A stretch of DNA of 55,286 nt, taken from positions 1 through 55,286 of IMG/VR virus record IMGVR_UViG_3300028805_000144; one strand, given 5' to 3'. This DNA is from a virus. Of the stretch, positions 1,829 through 53,697 are shown one piece after another. The position numbers and the translations under genes are program-made. Numbering within the stretch: the stretch's first letter is position 1; every line of letters begins with the position of its first letter. Below the pieces are notes generated by a model. It was not told where the DNA came from and searched no databases. It saw only the letters and a list, made by a program, of their open reading frames with translations.

Positions 1829-1856
1829 AAGCTGCGGATCCGCAGCTTGTTTTTTT
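1829..1856 (+). terminator. intrinsic terminator (hairpin AAGCTGCGGATCCGCAGCTT + T7)
   Basis: perfect palindromic GC stem followed by a T-run. Confidence 0.8.
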
Positions 1857-1875
1857 AAAAAATTTATGATATAAT
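1847..1875 (+). promoter_or_regulatory. consensus sigma-70-type promoter (TTGTTT-17-TGATATAAT)
   Basis: member of a repeated promoter family; -35 overlaps the terminator T-run. Confidence 0.7.
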
Positions 1876-1909
1876 ATGTATAGAAAATGAGGAAAGGAAT
1901 ATAAAACTC

Positions 1910-2794
1910 ATGGAAAAAATCTTTCTGGCTGATTCTTATAAGGATGCTCAAATTATTAGCGAGCCTTTTGAAAATGCAAAAGGAAAGATGTATGTGAAGA
2001 TTCGAAAAACTTGCCCTAGATGCGGTGGCAGCGGGAATTATTCTTATAATGAAGTCGACGGGACTATGTGTTACGGTTGTATGGGAGCAAAATATGTCAT
2101 AGACAATGTTCGTGCCTATACTGAAAAAGAATATAATCAGATGACTGCCGCAAAAGAAAAAGCCAAAGAAAGAAAGGCTATGCAGAAAGCTGCCAAAGAA
2201 AAAGAACTCGTTGATAATGCTGAAAAGTATAAGCATGAAGTTGCTTTTAAACTTGGCTTTGGTGAAGATAATAAAGCATACCTCGTATATGGTGATGATA
2301 CCTTTGCAATTAAAGATAAGCTAAAGGAACTCGGCGCAAGATTTGATCCTACTTTAAAATGGTTCTTTGCTAATAAAGTTGAGCTTCCGGAAGGTTATAA
2401 TCTTTGCGAATTTTCTTTTGATGAACTTTACGACTATAATCCTCTTGGCAAGTGGGCATCTTTTAAGGAAAATGCTAAAGAGATTGTTTCCAAAAGAATG
2501 GCTGAACTGAAAGGGCCGTCTACTTCTGTTTACTACCCCGCCGCGGAAAAGGATAGAATTAGAAATATTACTGCAAAACTTGCTTCTGTTCGCGGTTTTG
2601 AAGGTATTTATGGTTACACTTATGTTTACACTTTCACTTCTGGTGATTATGTATTTGTATGGATGACTGCCAAGAGTATTAATATTGAATGTGGCGAGAC
2701 CGTTGATTTGACTGGTACTATTAAGAGTTTTGATGAATACATGGGAATTAAAAATACCTATTTAACTCGTTGTATCGTAACCAAGATTGATTAA
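1910..2794 (+). CDS. hypothetical protein with CPRCGGSG...CYGCMG zinc-ribbon
   Basis: intact ORF; RBS GAGGAAAGG; two CxxC pairs. Confidence 0.6.
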   Translation: MEKIFLADSYKDAQIISEPFENAKGKMYVKIRKTCPRCGGSGNYSYNEVDGTMCYGCMGAKYVIDNVRAYTEKEYNQMTAAKEKAKERKAMQKAAKEKELVDNAEKYKHEVAFKLGFGEDNKAYLVYGDDTFAIKDKLKELGARFDPTLKWFFANKVELPEGYNLCEFSFDELYDYNPLGKWASFKENAKEIVSKRMAELKGPSTSVYYPAAEKDRIRNITAKLASVRGFEGIYGYTYVYTFTSGDYVFVWMTAKSINIECGETVDLTGTIKSFDEYMGIKNTYLTRCIVTKID

Positions 2795-2806
2795 GAGAGT
2801 TACCTC

Positions 2807-2835
2807 TTGATATTTCTATAAAATTATGATATAAT
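2807..2835 (+). promoter_or_regulatory. consensus promoter (TTGATA-17-TGATATAAT)
   Basis: repeated promoter family. Confidence 0.7.
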
Positions 2836-2867
2836 ATATATAGAAAATATGAAAAGAGGTTAAAGTT

Positions 2868-3605
2868 TTGAGAAAGCATAACTCTTTAATCGATGCATTT
2901 GTAGAAGATATTGGTTATTTAGATAAGCCATTTGGCTTGCTAATAAATGATGGAGAACCTGAAAATCCTATTTATTTTGAAGAGCTCCAAGAACAGATTT
3001 TAGATATTGATTCGGGGGCGGATTTCCACTTCGGTATGTCGAAATTTGTCATTACCGCCCCCTCGCTGGGGGATATCGTGATTAAAGTCCCTTTCAGCGG
3101 AACTTATGATTATTATGGGGATGATTGCGCAGATAATTTTTCTAAGAATGATATTGTAATTAATGAAGGTAATTATTGGTACACATATTCCCCATTTTGG
3201 AAAAAGGACTATTGCAAAATTGAATATAAGAAGTATAAAGCTCTTTGGAAAAAGAATTTAGATTGCTTTGTAGCAAAAACGCAATACTATAAAACACTTC
3301 CTAATGGAATTTCAGTATTTCTTCAAGAAAAAGTAATCCCTAAATATGATGACTGGCACAATAGAAAACCATCCATCCGCTCCAAAGACATTGCTAAAAG
3401 ATGGATCCATGTTGATGAACTTGCTCTTGATAGTACTTGGTTAGCAAGTTGTATTGATTTTTATGGAGAATCTAAAACGCGGCGGTTTATGGATTATTGC
3501 AATAACGAAGATACTGATATTCTTGCAGATCCTCATTCGGGAAATTTAGGCTATAGAGAAGATAATACTCCAGTAATTCTGGATTATTCAAATTTTATTG
3601 ATTAA
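2868..3605 (+). CDS. hypothetical protein (TTG start)
   Basis: ORF track; RBS AAGAGG 8 nt upstream of TTG. Confidence 0.5.
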   Translation: MRKHNSLIDAFVEDIGYLDKPFGLLINDGEPENPIYFEELQEQILDIDSGADFHFGMSKFVITAPSLGDIVIKVPFSGTYDYYGDDCADNFSKNDIVINEGNYWYTYSPFWKKDYCKIEYKKYKALWKKNLDCFVAKTQYYKTLPNGISVFLQEKVIPKYDDWHNRKPSIRSKDIAKRWIHVDELALDSTWLASCIDFYGESKTRRFMDYCNNEDTDILADPHSGNLGYREDNTPVILDYSNFID

Positions 3606-3626
3606 TATTTAAAGGAGAAATATACA

Positions 3627-3857
3627 ATGGCTCAGACACGGAATACGCCCTGCCGCTATTACATCTGTGAAAATAATTGCGAGAAGGGTTTTGAAGGCAC
3701 TTTTGGAAAGGCTTGTCAGAAATGCAAGTATTACTCTGCAATTTTTCAGAAGAAGCCTGTAAAGACTCGCGGGGATTTGCGTAAGACAAAGCGGTCTGAT
3801 TATGAAGAGAAGGAAGCAAAAGAAATGCTTGAAGAGGAAATGGAGAGGTATAAGTGA
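3627..3857 (+). CDS. small Cys-rich basic protein
   Basis: RBS AAAGGAGAAA; CxxC...CxxC. Confidence 0.55.
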   Translation: MAQTRNTPCRYYICENNCEKGFEGTFGKACQKCKYYSAIFQKKPVKTRGDLRKTKRSDYEEKEAKEMLEEEMERYK

Positions 3858-51834: not shown

Positions 51835-51842
51835 TTAATAAT

Positions 51843-51876
51843 CATTAACACAATAACAAGAGGAAGAAATCTTCCT
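51843..51876 (+). terminator. intrinsic terminator (AACAAGAGGAAG-AAAT-CTTCCTCTTGTT + T7)
   Basis: 12-bp stem, then a T-run. Confidence 0.8.
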
Positions 51877-51894
51877 CTTGTTTTTTTCTAAAAA
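51866..51894 (+). promoter_or_regulatory. consensus promoter (TTGTTT-17-TATAAT)
   Basis: repeated promoter family. Confidence 0.65.
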
Positions 51895-51935
51895 TTATTA
51901 TATAATATATATAGAAAAGATAAAGGAGAAAATAT

Positions 51936-52379
51936 ATGAGGCTTTGGCATACTTCGCTTATTCCTGTTCTGCCTCGTGAGCAGTTGGTTGCTCAGTGGAG
52001 AGAACTATCCGCAATAGCCGGATCAATTAAAGAAAAAGGAACTCCTAATCATTTATTAGTTAATTTCGTAATGGATTATCCTTTTAATCATTTTATTTCT
52101 TATGCTTATTATGTGCGGGAAGAAATGAACAAACGCAGCTACCGCACAATGGATAGTGTATGGAAGAAGATCATTTCTCTCGTAGATAATAATGATTATA
52201 ACATTCTTCCTATTAATGAAGTGTATTATAAAAAAATGGATGAAAAATACTTAGATATTTGTTTTTATAATCTTTATGAAAAACATCTATGCGGTGGAAT
52301 TTCTGATGATGATTTTATAAAAATTAATGAAACAGTTTGGAATGTGCATGGTGATTATAATCATAGTATTGCATTCTAA
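51936..52379 (+). CDS. DenV-like pyrimidine-dimer DNA glycosylase family protein (Pyr_excise-like N-terminus MRLWH..LIPVLPREQLVAQWREL)
   Basis: resembles the T4 endonuclease V N-terminus (…LVSELADQHLMAEYREL…); RBS AAAGGAGAAAATAT. Confidence 0.5.
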   Translation: MRLWHTSLIPVLPREQLVAQWRELSAIAGSIKEKGTPNHLLVNFVMDYPFNHFISYAYYVREEMNKRSYRTMDSVWKKIISLVDNNDYNILPINEVYYKKMDEKYLDICFYNLYEKHLCGGISDDDFIKINETVWNVHGDYNHSIAF

Positions 52380-52393
52380 AAGGAGAAAATAAA

Positions 52394-53638
52394 ATGCTTA
52401 ATAAAAACAATGAAAGAGAACTCGCTTATGTAGTTCTCATCGACGCAGTCACCCCCATTGAAGGGTATGATCGTGTGGAATTAGCCCATGTCGGTGGTTG
52501 GACGATTGTAGTTGGTAAGGGGGAATTCCATGTAGGAGATCCCGCAATTTACTTTGAGATTGATTCTCAGCTTCCTGAAGTTGAACCTTTTGTAAATATG
52601 GAATTTCTTGCAAAGAAGAAATATAAAGTAAAGACTCAGAAAATGTGTAAATCAATTTCTCAGGGCTTACTTATGTCTGCTGCAAATTTTGGATGGACTA
52701 TTTATCACGATGAATCTGAAGAAGATACTTATATCATTGATAAAGAAAATAGATCTCATTCCACTAAAGACGAATCTCGTTTCCTTACTAAGCAGCTTGG
52801 TGTAACCTATGCTGTTGCAGAAGATAATGCAAGAAAAGCCAATTCAGAAGATAAATATAAGAAGATGTCTCAGCGGCATCCTAAACTCTTTTCTAAGCAG
52901 CCTTTCCGTTGGCTTATGAGAAGAAATTGGGGAAAGAAGCTTCTTTTCTTCTTCTTTGGTCGAAAGAAAGATAAGAAATCGGGCTGGCCTCAGTGGGTTA
53001 CAAAAACGGACGAAGAGAGAATCGAGAACCAGTCCTATCTTCTCAAAGACAAGACCACTAAATGGATTGCGACTGAGAAGATCGATGGGACTAGCACCAC
53101 CTTCACTCTTAAGCGCGGTAGATGGCCTCATAAGGATGAATTTTATGTTTGTTCTAGAAACGTAGTTTTTGATAAACCTGACAAGTCTTGCTTTTATGAT
53201 ACTAATGTTTATCTTGAAATGGCAGAAAAATATCATATTTTAGAACATATGACTTATATGCTACACAATGTATTTAAAGATTGTGATTGGATTACCATTC
53301 AAGGTGAAACTTATGGTGCTAATATCCAAAAGAGAGATTATCATATGACCGATCATGAATTTCGAGCATTTAACTTTATTACTTCAAATAGTGGCAGATG
53401 GAATTCTAAAAAGATGCAAACTCTTTTGGAAAAGGGGCATTATAATATTCCTTGCGTTCCTATCCTTGAAGAATCTTATATTCTCCCTGACACTGTTGAA
53501 GAATTAAGAGCATATGTTGATAGCGAAGCTTCTATGATTGATGGAAGTATGCGAGAAGGTATTGTCTTCCGTTCTCAAGACGGGTCTCAGTCTTTTAAGT
53601 GCGTATCTCCGGAATTTCTTCTCAAGTACCATCAGTAA
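52394..53638 (+). CDS. ATP-dependent RNA ligase (nucleotidyltransferase motif I KIDGT, motif EGIVFR)
   Basis: WIATEKIDGTSTTF (KxDG); ...REGIVFRSQDG; RBS AAAGGAGAAAATAAA. Confidence 0.65.
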   Translation: MLNKNNERELAYVVLIDAVTPIEGYDRVELAHVGGWTIVVGKGEFHVGDPAIYFEIDSQLPEVEPFVNMEFLAKKKYKVKTQKMCKSISQGLLMSAANFGWTIYHDESEEDTYIIDKENRSHSTKDESRFLTKQLGVTYAVAEDNARKANSEDKYKKMSQRHPKLFSKQPFRWLMRRNWGKKLLFFFFGRKKDKKSGWPQWVTKTDEERIENQSYLLKDKTTKWIATEKIDGTSTTFTLKRGRWPHKDEFYVCSRNVVFDKPDKSCFYDTNVYLEMAEKYHILEHMTYMLHNVFKDCDWITIQGETYGANIQKRDYHMTDHEFRAFNFITSNSGRWNSKKMQTLLEKGHYNIPCVPILEESYILPDTVEELRAYVDSEASMIDGSMREGIVFRSQDGSQSFKCVSPEFLLKYHQ

Positions 53639-53644
53639 ATTTAT

Positions 53645-53677
53645 AAGCGGAAGATTTTTATCTTCCGCTTGTTTTTT
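53645..53677 (+). terminator. intrinsic terminator (AGCGGAAGA...TCTTCCGCT + T-run)
   Basis: 9-bp stem, then a T-run. Confidence 0.8.
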
Positions 53678-53697
53678 ATAAAAAAATATAGTATAAT
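53669..53697 (+). promoter_or_regulatory. consensus promoter (TTGTTT-17-TATAAT)
   Basis: repeated promoter family. Confidence 0.65.

Follow-up and report, generated by a model that had tools for sequence, protein, structure and literature searches.

Near-identical promoters of putative early, sigma-A type recur along a TAG-recoding phage genome

Phage T4 opens its infection with 'uber' early promoters that combine UP, -35, TGn and -10 elements, are read by the host sigma-70 polymerase, and are thought to beat host promoters right after infection (Hinton 2010, PMC2988021). T4-like phages also carry PeSLs, composite cassettes of a terminator and an early promoter (PMC2839356, PMC4122927). A third point of reference is Phass-1 (OQ749652.1), of the 'Caudoviricetes code 15 clade', whose ~136 kb genome has TAG recoded and encodes a suppressor tRNA-CTA and a tape-measure protein of ~3000 residues (PMC10607447); promoters and sigma factors are never mentioned in that paper. 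Here we analyse a 55,286-nucleotide stretch of viral DNA (IMG/VR record IMGVR_UViG_3300028805_000144; the window) that bears likeness to all three.

As in T4, early genes are preceded by near-identical promoters, dozens in T4 and about a dozen here, which pair an excellent -10 box, TGn and spacer with additional conserved positions outside the canonical elements. Unlike T4, the context is of Gram-positive type (a TRTG '-16' motif, with AAGGAG as ribosome-binding site), the -35 region consists of just TTG and the T-tract after it, and no clear UP element was seen at these promoters. The window also encodes a sigma-A-like factor instead of AsiA/MotA or gp55, and its promoter set would additionally drive a stop-codon suppressor tRNA. 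A T4-like early-promoter set has not been described before for this phage group.

Three copies (1847, 51878 and 53669) resemble PeSLs in that a hairpin is joined to an early promoter, with the terminator T-tract serving as the -35 region, and all three sit among genes without assigned function. In contrast to PeSLs, nine of the 12 copies lack a hairpin, indel junctions relative to close relatives do not fall within paired copies, and orthologous copies are inherited vertically. With Phass-1 the window shares TAG recoding, the suppressor tRNA-CTA, a tape-measure protein of similar length and promoters of the same architecture: at least 31 copies of TTGACAtAAAAAAATTTTTrTGnTATAATatatatAGAAA lie on one strand of that genome. 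The two phages are nevertheless distant. Six window proteins match Phass-1 at 27-44% identity, GC content is 44.5% in Phass-1 and ~33% here, and the -35 box and spacer are TTGACA (or TTGACT) with A7T5 there versus TTGATT with T7A6 here.

The repeated element and its copies

That near-identical promoters recur in this DNA, as a first-pass annotation had claimed, was borne out by both a weight matrix and a repeat finder. The ~50-bp element reads TTGATTTTTttAAAAAATTaTGaTATAAT-ATATAT-(A/G). Its core, TTGATT-N16-18-TATAAT, has eight exact matches in the window where 0.31 are expected, a count reached in 0 of 100 shuffles. A matrix trained on the copies and used to scan the window returned eleven strong sites of 46-77 bits (1847, 2807, 4079, 5424, 7443, 10515, 12161, 15147, 17286, 51878 and 53669) and a weaker twelfth at 49304 (24.5 bits), all on the + strand; no site above 10 bits appeared on the - strand of the window or between 18 and 49 kb. 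The independent repeat finder grouped these 11 sites, too, into one 52-nt family (D2). Together with a degenerate copy at 13375, the tally is 11 strong, one weaker and one degenerate. Information content amounts to ~54 bits across 65 positions, well beyond what a pair of hexamers could supply.

The element consists of TTG at -35, a 17-bp spacer, the Gram-positive-style TRTG '-16' motif and TATAAT. It had been described as a perfect consensus, which is accurate for the -10 box and the 17-bp spacer but not for the -35 box, where TTGATT or TTGTTT agrees with TTGACA at four of six positions. The TG before the -10 box is likewise present in 9 of 12 copies and missing at 49304, 51878 and 53669. The spacer is all A/T, fixed at 17 bp, and a perfect palindrome (T7A6). 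Beyond the -10 box, an ATATAT discriminator would lead to a purine start ~7 nt past the box. The invariant all-A/T palindromic spacer and ~15 conserved transcribed bases exceed known sigma-A recognition needs, which counts against a plain sigma-A reading.

The copies occupy intergenic gaps of the TAG-poor modules only (49.3-55.3 kb and 1-17.3 kb), and each is co-oriented with its downstream gene. From the end of the -10 box it is 27-56 nt to a protein start codon, with its AAGGAG ribosome-binding site, and 88-246 nt to a downstream tRNA.

At the left end, the copy at 1847-1898 (TTGTTT variant; 66.8 bits) has its -35 box over the T-tract of terminator hairpin 1829-1848 (dG -12.9) and is followed by gene 1910-2794. 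The copy at 2807-2858, whose orthologues in the close relatives L331 and L334 are identical, begins 12 nt past the stop codon of that gene, ahead of ORF 2868-3605. The most divergent of the strong copies, 4079-4130 (TTGCAA, A-rich spacer; 46.3 bits), lies upstream of an HTH-like gene (4164-4580; HTH_20 match), and its private variant is kept in L331 and L334. The copy at 5424-5475, with a 4-nt overlap at the stop codon of 4630-5427, lies ahead of 5486-5791, while the best match of all, 10515-10566 (76.9 bits), precedes the phage sigma gene, its -10 box ending 41 nt upstream of the start codon. A further copy, 15147-15198, stands before the cREC_REC gene 15209-15553. Three copies with a GTAAGATAAAGAA leader precede tRNAs: 7443-7494 (first tRNA at 7718), 12161-12212 (a cluster opened by the TAG-suppressor tRNA) and 17286-17337, whose leader enters a hairpin module (17332-17397) and then tRNAs. 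The site at 13375, rightly singled out before as atypical, is a degenerate copy (TTGTCT-N16-TATAAT, 13374-13401, + strand; family D5) in which a 2-nt insertion displaces the TG. It lies upstream of an endonuclease-like ORF (13429-13929), in a segment (13229-14083) that is missing as a whole in close relatives.

At the right end, the weaker copy at 49304-49355 (TTGATT-N17-TATAAT, no TG) lies upstream of an 823-residue SPFH/MVP-shoulder gene (49363-51834). The next, 51878-51929 (TTGTTT, no TG), is fused to terminator 51855-51882 and precedes 51936-52379 and an RNA ligase gene; it had been placed at 51866, a position inside the terminator stem. The last, 53669-53720 (also TTGTTT without TG), is fused to terminator 53643-53672 and precedes 53725-53985, a kinase gene and a phosphoesterase gene.

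Fusion to the preceding terminator, previously thought usual, is thus true of just 3 of 12 copies. Of those without a hairpin, five start 8-14 nt past the upstream stop codon, another begins 22 nt beyond a tRNA, and yet another overlaps the stop codon before it. With terminators ahead of only three copies, the majority would serve as tandem boosters at intervals of 1-3 kb within a co-directional early block.

Readers of the early promoters

We consider it likely that the repeats are very strong extended -10 early promoters of sigma-A type, used first by the host RNA polymerase. Early transcription by host sigma-A in a Firmicute-like host had been suggested before, and the promoter architecture, the Phass-1 array, the TAG-poor location and several hints as to the host are all consistent with it. 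Phass-1 carries an analogous array and no homologue of the window sigma was found in it by tblastn (best E=3.4); such arrays therefore appear to need no phage sigma, which favours host sigma-A.

The complete sigma-70-family factor annotated earlier at 10585-11484 (+ strand) is indeed there. Regions 1.2-4.2 are present (Pfam r1_2, r2, r3 and r4), with only a 29-residue acidic N-terminus in place of region 1.1. The protein is of SigA/RpoD type (NCBIfam RpoD, E=3e-98), and among solved structures it is closest to Firmicute SigA proteins, foremost that of C. difficile (7l7b). It belongs to a family of compact, ~300-residue proteins encoded on phage contigs of 117-195 kb from gut and rumen. Across 12 family members (alignment A1), E585, R588, Q589, Q437 and W434 are invariant, the first three being the residues that read the -35 TTG, and the window sigma also retains R584, Q437, H455 and E458. 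Since the residues reading TTG, TG and the -10 box are kept, the phage sigma probably reads the same early promoters and not a different late motif. The separate late target previously presumed for it is thus probably wrong for a SigA/RpoD-like protein whose own gene lies behind an early promoter. Phage genes that resemble primary-type sigmas, unlike the very divergent T4 gp55 or SPO1 gp28, are also recorded in databases, for example in Microcystis phage MaAM05 (rpoD) and in cyanophages S-CBS1 and S-CBS3 ('group 2 sigma'), but these are only 30-43% identical to the window sigma, whose family is set apart by its ~300 residues, its lack of region 1.1 and F/Y at W433.

It is possible, though we think it unlikely, that the phage sigma and promoters of TTGATTTTT type form a private pair tuned to each other, with host sigma-A merely kick-starting the set through the extended -10 before the phage sigma captures core polymerase. 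A copy precedes the sigma gene in all relatives examined (L002, L005, L006, L331 and L334), which would permit positive feedback. The family also differs where group-1 sigmas normally do not vary: all 12 members have F/Y for W433, S for T440 and K for R436. R584, reader of the fifth -35 base, is K in some members, and the window sigma scores 330 bits, under the RpoD equivalog cut-off of 555. The -35 box, moreover, is TTGATT, not TTGACA, in nearly all sigma-bearing lineages and predominates as such in sigma-carrying IMG/VR contigs (117-195 kb; sigma 42-63% identical), whereas sigma-less Phass-1 has TTGACA/TTGACT, so that the phage sigma could be the main reader. That correlation, however, is based on one sigma-less lineage, and one that has an analogous array without a phage sigma. 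The residues that contact the -35 TTG, the TG and the -10 box match those of host-type sigma-A, so no altered specificity is readable, and the first round of sigma synthesis requires host sigma-A anyway.

The sequence past the -10 box bears on a second alternative, which we regard as doubtful: that the T7A6 palindrome, the stretch from +1 to +15, or both are an operator through which a phage or host regulator could co-ordinate or shut off the entire early set. Information is high across the spacer and ~15 nt beyond the -10 box, the spacer is a perfect A/T palindrome whose style varies by lineage (A7T5 in Phass-1), and the early protein encoded at 4164-4580 is HTH-like. Even so, the shared regulator site proposed earlier for this stretch reads, on sequence, as discriminator plus the first ~15 transcribed bases and is not a demonstrated operator; no regulator was identified in this analysis. 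The stretch varies by copy (AGAAAA, ACAAAA, GTAAGAT), and ATATATAGAAAA, which commonly follows TGnTATAAT in many other phage contigs from gut and rumen, is shared with contigs that differ in -35 box and spacer. The few substitutions between close relatives fall mostly mid-spacer. In tRNA-type copies the stretch flanks a leader RNA hairpin on the 5' side and leads directly into that structured leader. The proposed division into two subclasses has a limited reach: in the window the three tRNA-preceding copies continue GTAAGATAAAGAA and the eight protein-preceding ones AGAAAA or ACAA, and the split holds in L005, but it fails in a relative with a 60%-identical sigma and family-wide. Among the copies classified in the window and 44 related loci, those of GTAAG type are followed by a protein gene in 46 cases and by a tRNA in 26, with 35 unclear, and those of AGAAA type in 44 and 12, with 9 unclear.

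Comparison with relatives makes it improbable that the repeats are mainly PeSL-like recombination modules that owe their uniformity to gene conversion and the shuffling of cassettes. In three copies a terminator and a promoter do form a true composite, genes without assigned function crowd the early region, gene order in L006 differs around some copies, and two replacement boundaries lie 10-17 nt upstream of a copy (17276 vs 17286; 7426 vs 7443). Yet none of the ~8 indels or replacements relative to L331 and L334 has a copy on either side of it as a pair, and most involve homing-endonuclease genes or tRNA segments. All nine left-block copies stand at orthologous positions in L331 and L334. Over 48 nt their identity is 98.1-99.5%, compared with ~92% across the region and 89% in the 30 nt upstream, and substitutions are confined to the mid-spacer and the transcribed leader. 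Each copy's private variants are inherited in both, and orthologous copies are more alike than paralogous ones, which argues for vertical inheritance under purifying selection and no ongoing homogenisation. Further afield, L002 has 7 copies, L005 10 and L006 15, and at least 180 further unique copies in the 44 related loci give the consensus TTGATTTTTt.aAAAAa.TaTG.TATAATATATAT. A role other than that of promoter, such as a site for replication, packaging or a nucleoid protein, is hardly credible for these elements, given their strict gene co-orientation, intergenic position, fixed distance to ribosome-binding sites, 17-bp spacing, TG and TATAAT, and their dispersal every 1-3 kb instead of in clusters.

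TAG recoding and a second promoter class

The phage, a large one with related contigs of ~128-139 kb, reads TAG as an amino acid in late genes. Between 20 and 49 kb, read-through of TAG opens ORFs of 2902, 1451, 759, 738 and 635 codons, and a tRNA with anticodon CTA, an amber suppressor (12385-12459, + strand; ARAGORN; Rfam tRNA, 66.3 bits), comes first among the genes behind promoter 12161. A copy also lies upstream of the suppressor tRNA in both relatives checked (11184 then 11411 in L005; 13322 then 13450 in L006). The confinement of the early-class copies to TAG-poor modules fits early expression. TAG is absent from most promoter-fed genes; because some do contain it (seven in 4630-5427 and one in 14089-15135), the split between early, standard-code and late, recoded genes is not clean.

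The host is probably a member of the Bacillota (Firmicutes). Shine-Dalgarno usage, the kinship of the phage sigma with C. difficile SigA, the genome bins in which related contigs occur, most of them Bacillota, and the predicted host of Phass-1 in Clostridia (PMC10607447) are each consistent with this.

Under the host-first reading that we prefer, host RNA polymerase with host sigma-A would fire the early promoters once the DNA enters the cell. The boosted block, made up of small genes without assigned function, RNA-repair enzymes, ~20 tRNAs including the CTA suppressor, and the sigma gene, would then be expressed. Once made, the phage sigma could sustain or monopolise transcription from the same promoters, and the suppressor tRNA from promoter 12161 would permit translation of TAG-rich late genes. 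With the late blocks placed behind a weaker second class of promoter, the arrangement may work as a transcription-then-decoding timer.

A distinct conserved motif, of the kind that the first-pass annotation had advised looking for ahead of late genes, was found upstream of three late blocks, two of them TAG-rich. These promoter-like sites, ATTTGACAAA...TAnAnT, have a perfect TTGACA and an imperfect -10 box and appear weaker than the early class. One (ATTTGACAAA...TATACT; 25612-25642, + strand) begins 5 nt past the stop codon of 23700-25607 and lies upstream of 25774-26283. Another of the same form (33304-33334, - strand; family D15) follows the bidirectional terminator 33342-33379 and lies upstream of a TAG-rich ORF (32778-33266) that is RuvC-like by eye only. 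The third (ATTTGACAAA...TGtTAGAAT; 39830-39860, - strand), after terminator 39885-39913, stands upstream of a 1451-residue ORF of the tail-gene block (35446-39801), which contains 29 in-frame TAG codons.

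A transcriptional layer in a TAG-recoded genome

Research on stop-codon-recoded phages has centred on translation, that is, on suppressor tRNAs, release factors and genes with in-frame stops. The window adds a transcriptional layer, in which a single, strongly conserved family of promoters sets the standard-code module apart and is predicted to drive, from directly upstream, both the suppressor tRNA and a phage-borne sigma factor of housekeeping type.

TAG read-through ORFs, a tRNA with anticodon CTA and TAG-poor flanking modules identify the window (GC ~33%) as a piece of a large phage genome that recodes TAG and carries a suppressor tRNA. 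The + strand holds the genes of 1-32 kb, the - strand those of 32-49 kb and the + strand again those of 49-55 kb, and AAGGAG-type ribosome-binding sites precede start codons. The standard code fragments the ORFs of 20-49 kb. Reading through TAG roughly triples the long-ORF content there, from 2540 to 8553 codons (counted in ORFs of >=150 codons), and yields ORFs of 2902, 1451, 759, 738 and 635 codons. In-frame TAG is absent from most genes of 1-20 kb and 49-55 kb. A gene within the promoter-fed early block (4630-5427) does carry seven in-frame TAG codons, and its homologue in L005, a more distant relative, also has several, so recoding is not limited to late modules. Opposite TAG, the aligned L005 residues vary (E, Q, D, K, S and N) and do not point to one amino acid. 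ARAGORN places 19 tRNAs at 6.2-18.1 kb, the one with anticodon CTA at 12385-12459; Rfam adds three further, longer tRNA matches in the window and, over the tRNA region, reports tRNAs only, even at E<=1.

Related contigs measure ~128-139 kb, and a near-identity DNA search found no close relative among annotated phages. Among published genomes, that of Phass-1 (OQ749652.1; 135,976 bp) comes closest; this phage reads TAG as Gln and has a predicted Clostridia host (PMC10607447). Only six distantly similar proteins are common to Phass-1 and the window, and the paper describing the Phass-1 genome makes no mention of promoters (PMC10607447).

Architecture and conservation of a probable early promoter family

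The near-identical promoter copies described in the first-pass annotation are real. Exact TTGATT-N16-18-TATAAT occurs eight times in the window against 0.31 expected, and a weight matrix recovered 11 strong sites (1847, 2807, 4079, 5424, 7443, 10515, 12161, 15147, 17286, 51878 and 53669) and one weaker site (49304), every one of them on the + strand and outside 18-49 kb. A repeat finder grouped the identical 11 strong sites as one 52-nt family. The conserved unit far exceeds two hexamers: the aligned sites read TTGATTTTTttAAAAAATTaTGaTATAAT-ATATAT-(A/G)... and hold ~54 bits over 65 positions. A listed start at 51866 falls inside a terminator stem, the promoter itself beginning at 51878, and the site at 13375 is a copy, albeit a degenerate one with a 2-nt insertion.

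The perfect consensus first claimed for these promoters holds for the -10 box, which is TATAAT in 12/12 copies, and for the spacing, a constant 17 bp across the 12, but not for the rest. The -35 hexamer is typically TTGATT or TTGTTT rather than TTGACA; with TTGATA and TTGCAA included, it matches TTGACA at three to five of six positions, and TTG alone is invariant. A TG stands one base before the -10 box in nine of the 12 copies, as TATG or TTTG, and is missing from 49304, 51878 and 53669. TRTG at -16 and extended conservation have been described for Bacillus and Clostridium promoters, and the window copies agree with these in both respects. The spacer is an all-A/T palindrome, T7A6 in the window and A7T5 in Phass-1.

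All 12 copies are intergenic and, lying on the + strand, point the same way as the transcription unit downstream. Eleven copies were classified: from the end of the -10 box, the start codon is 27-56 nt away in the eight of protein type, and the first tRNA is 88-246 nt away in the three with the GTAAGATAAAGAA leader. From copy 10515 it is 41 nt to the sigma gene, which starts at 10585; no promoter stands closer upstream of the suppressor tRNA (12385) than copy 12161; and two copies are predicted to drive a cluster of an RNA ligase (52394-53638), an AAA_33 kinase (53982-54509) and a metallophosphoesterase (54511-55044).

Fusion to a preceding terminator, taken at first to be usual, turned out to be confined to three copies (1847, 51878 and 53669), in which a GC-rich hairpin (dG -12.9 to -18.4) sits directly upstream and its T-tract is the promoter's own TTGTTTTTTT. 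The best upstream folds of the remaining copies contain no GC-rich hairpin and range from -1.0 to -8.4; five of these copies begin 8-14 nt past a stop codon, one begins 22 nt past a tRNA and one overlaps a stop. T4-like phages carry composite terminator/early-promoter cassettes, termed PeSLs (PMC2839356, PMC4122927). Shuffling of this kind is not supported here: the stem-loop directly before the promoter is present in only 3/12 copies, and of ~8 insertions, deletions or replacements relative to L331 and L334, both close relatives, none has a copy at each end. Homing-endonuclease genes or tRNA segments account for most of these changes, and two replacement boundaries fall 10-17 nt upstream of a copy.

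L331 and L334, whose sigma is 98% identical and whose region is ~92% identical to that of the window, retain every one of the nine left-block copies in orthologous position. Identity is 98.1-99.5% over the 48-nt cores, compared with 89% over the 30 nt upstream, and the few core substitutions are mid-spacer apart from one in the transcribed leader. The private deviations of each copy are inherited in both relatives, and this retention of private variants by orthologous copies speaks against gene conversion or concerted evolution. The more distant relatives carry seven copies in 14 kb (L002), 10 in 21 kb (L005) and 15 in 21 kb (L006); each of them has a copy before the sigma gene, and L005 and L006 have one before the suppressor tRNA as well. 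Pooling of 180 unique copies from outside the window gave TTGATTTTTt.aAAAAa.TaTG.TATAATATATAT.tAAgataaA, with TaTG.TATAAT as the family consensus around the -10 box. A scan of a genome collection with the tRNA-type leader returned 40 stretches, each with several co-oriented copies, on contigs reaching 128-181 kb; the genome bins that hold them are scattered across taxa, though Bacillota for the most part. Such multi-copy co-oriented arrays on phage contigs exclude host chromosomal rRNA or tRNA promoters with a GTAAGATAAAG leader as their source.

Downstream of the -10 box, a shared regulator site had been proposed. The conserved ATATAT is better read as the discriminator and the next bases as the transcript start: TATAATATATATAGAAAA recurs in >100 IMG/VR loci after otherwise different promoters with ATTTGACAAA-type -35 boxes, and no evidence of an operator was found. 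The division into tRNA and protein subclasses stands within the window and dissolves across relatives, where the GTAAG leader precedes 46 protein genes versus 26 tRNAs (all classified copies, window included). Since this leader is found before protein genes more frequently than before tRNAs, the two functional subclasses are a local feature.

The GTAAGATAAAGA leader of the tRNA-type copies continues straight into a 60-110-nt hairpin module of the form AAG-arm-(A)CAGCAAAU...arm'-CTTG, which is found also between tRNAs (window 6290-6353, 12930-13036, 13047-13131, 17332-17397 and 18362-18421, with further copies in L002, L005 and L006). Its arms vary in sequence between copies yet remain complementary, and the closing stem is present in 18 of 35 CAGCAA[AT] sites in four genomes, versus 18% of shuffled-arm controls. 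No Rfam family matches the module. Three long copies resemble a degenerate tRNA-Cys(GCA), and 13060-13128 is called a tRNA by ARAGORN and not by Rfam.

Candidate readers of the early-class promoters

The gene at 10585-11484 (+) encodes a sigma factor with regions 1.2, 2, 3 and 4, each matched above the cut-off by its Pfam model (r1_2, r2, r3, r4). Region 1.1, by which group 1 sigma factors are defined, is absent here, just 29 acidic residues preceding region 1.2. The best family model is NCBIfam RpoD (E=3e-98), at 330 bits below the equivalog cut-off of 555, and the best solved relatives are Firmicute SigA structures from C. difficile (7l7b) and B. subtilis (7ckq). We aligned 12 family members (61-100% identical) and numbered residues according to E. 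coli sigma-70. We take E585, R588 and Q589 to read the -35 TTG, Q437 to act at the -10 box, and H455 and E458 to read the TG. Y430, W434, Q437, E585, R588 and Q589 are invariant in the family; H455 (H/N), E458 (E/D) and R584 (R/K) vary, and W433 is F/Y, T440 is S and R436 is K in 12/12 members.

On this mapping, the phage sigma is expected to have sigma-A-like specificity, which speaks against the earlier assumption that it serves a distinct late motif. It is probably a co-user of the early-class promoters. As their initial reader, host sigma-A in a Firmicute, as the first-pass annotation had it, is a reasonable candidate. Phass-1 has no homologue of the phage sigma and yet carries at least 31 one-strand copies of TTGACAtAAAAAAATTTTTrTGnTATAATatatatAGAAA (3.5-131 kb, mostly 55-131 kb, - strand; loci L204-L206), so such an array can do without a phage sigma, a point in favour of host sigma-A as the initial reader. 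Of known systems, the 'uber' early promoters of T4, which are read by host sigma-70, come closest (PMC2988021).

One observation sits less easily with host sigma-A: the -35 box is predominantly TTGATT in IMG/VR contigs that bear the sigma (42-63% identical) and TTGACA in sigma-less Phass-1. This would fit a phage sigma that, lacking region 1.1 and carrying F/Y at W433, co-evolves with the TTGATTTTT-spacer promoters. Host sigma-A would then fire the early-class promoters once, via the extended -10 element, and the phage sigma would capture core polymerase and sustain transcription of the tRNAs, the suppressor and other early genes, perhaps also serving TTGACA-type late promoters, so that transcription became independent of the state of host sigma-A. 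If so, one promoter family would time the genetic-code switch. We consider such co-evolution unlikely; with just one sigma-less lineage, the TTGATT/TTGACA contrast is a lead and not evidence for it. MT835469.1 (176 kb) was dropped as a second sigma-less comparison, as it has only tail and baseplate proteins in common and neither the array nor a tRNA set. PHROGs and Pfam revealed no recognisable anti-sigma factor or polymerase modifier among the small early proteins. A crAss-like virion RNA polymerase is rejected as a reader: the 2902-codon ORF (39912-48620) is coiled-coil rich and tape-measure-like, matching the Phass-1 tape-measure region (30% over 430 residues), and the window yielded no polymerase.

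As a principle, such promoters are textbook biology, and tying a promoter family to a suppressor tRNA and a housekeeping-type sigma adds modestly to it. Promoters of this recoded phage group have not been described before. The >50-bit signature can be used to delimit likely early regions in uncultivated phages of the group, a model of early standard code and late recoding becomes testable at defined start sites, and the copies are predicted to be natural, very strong Bacillota-type promoters of use in synthetic biology.

Late blocks and accessory elements

A distinct motif upstream of late genes, anticipated in the first-pass annotation, does exist. ATTTGACAAAnTnnnAAAnTTnnnnTAnAnT occurs three times in the window against 0.00 expected, at 25612 (+), 33304-33334 (-) and 39830-39860 (-), one site lying 5 nt past a stop codon and two after terminators. 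At each site a perfect TTGACA is paired with an imperfect -10 box, and a late block follows, two of the three blocks being TAG-rich. Before homologues of gene 25774 in distant relatives, the TTGACAAA motif is essentially absent; TTGACA occurs in 4/37 loci, none clearly the motif. Ahead of the first late operon (~20.9 kb) lies a promoter-like region of another and weaker kind, with a conserved GC-rich island upstream. This island, TGCTCGGCGCGCAGACATTCGTATCTGAAAT (~20755-20790), lies between a terminator (20679-20704) and the first TAG-rich operon, is kept in the window, L005 and L002, and may act in late control or represent a small RNA.

Several tRNA genes contain 35-75-nt inserts beside the anticodon (7288-7421, 17403-17545, 17682-17805 and possibly 8801-8915; also L002 112-263 and 9484-9621, and L005 4921-5069 and 7571-7687). 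The inserts are below group I intron size, and Rfam scores their carriers as 120-140-nt tRNAs. Together with the RNA ligase, the kinase, the phosphoesterase, a cREC_REC gene (15209-15553) and 14089-15135, whose L005 homologue matches RlaP, they make protein-catalysed tRNA splicing or anticodon repair conceivable.

A GIY-YIG-like ORF with nine in-frame TAG codons (18816-19571) interrupts what in L005, L331 and L334 is one continuous DUF2828+DUF7788 ORF of 508-510 residues. An endonuclease-like cassette (13229-14083; ORF 13429-13929, with its own degenerate promoter) is missing from L331 and L334, and L331 has a GIY-YIG gene at another place, in the tRNA region (7291-8031). From their sequences, we read all three as homing-endonuclease mobility. 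The window also encodes two SPFH/Band-7 proteins: the 823-residue product of 49363-51834 also matches the major-vault-protein shoulder domain, and 488-1591 sits in a 1.25-kb segment missing from L331.
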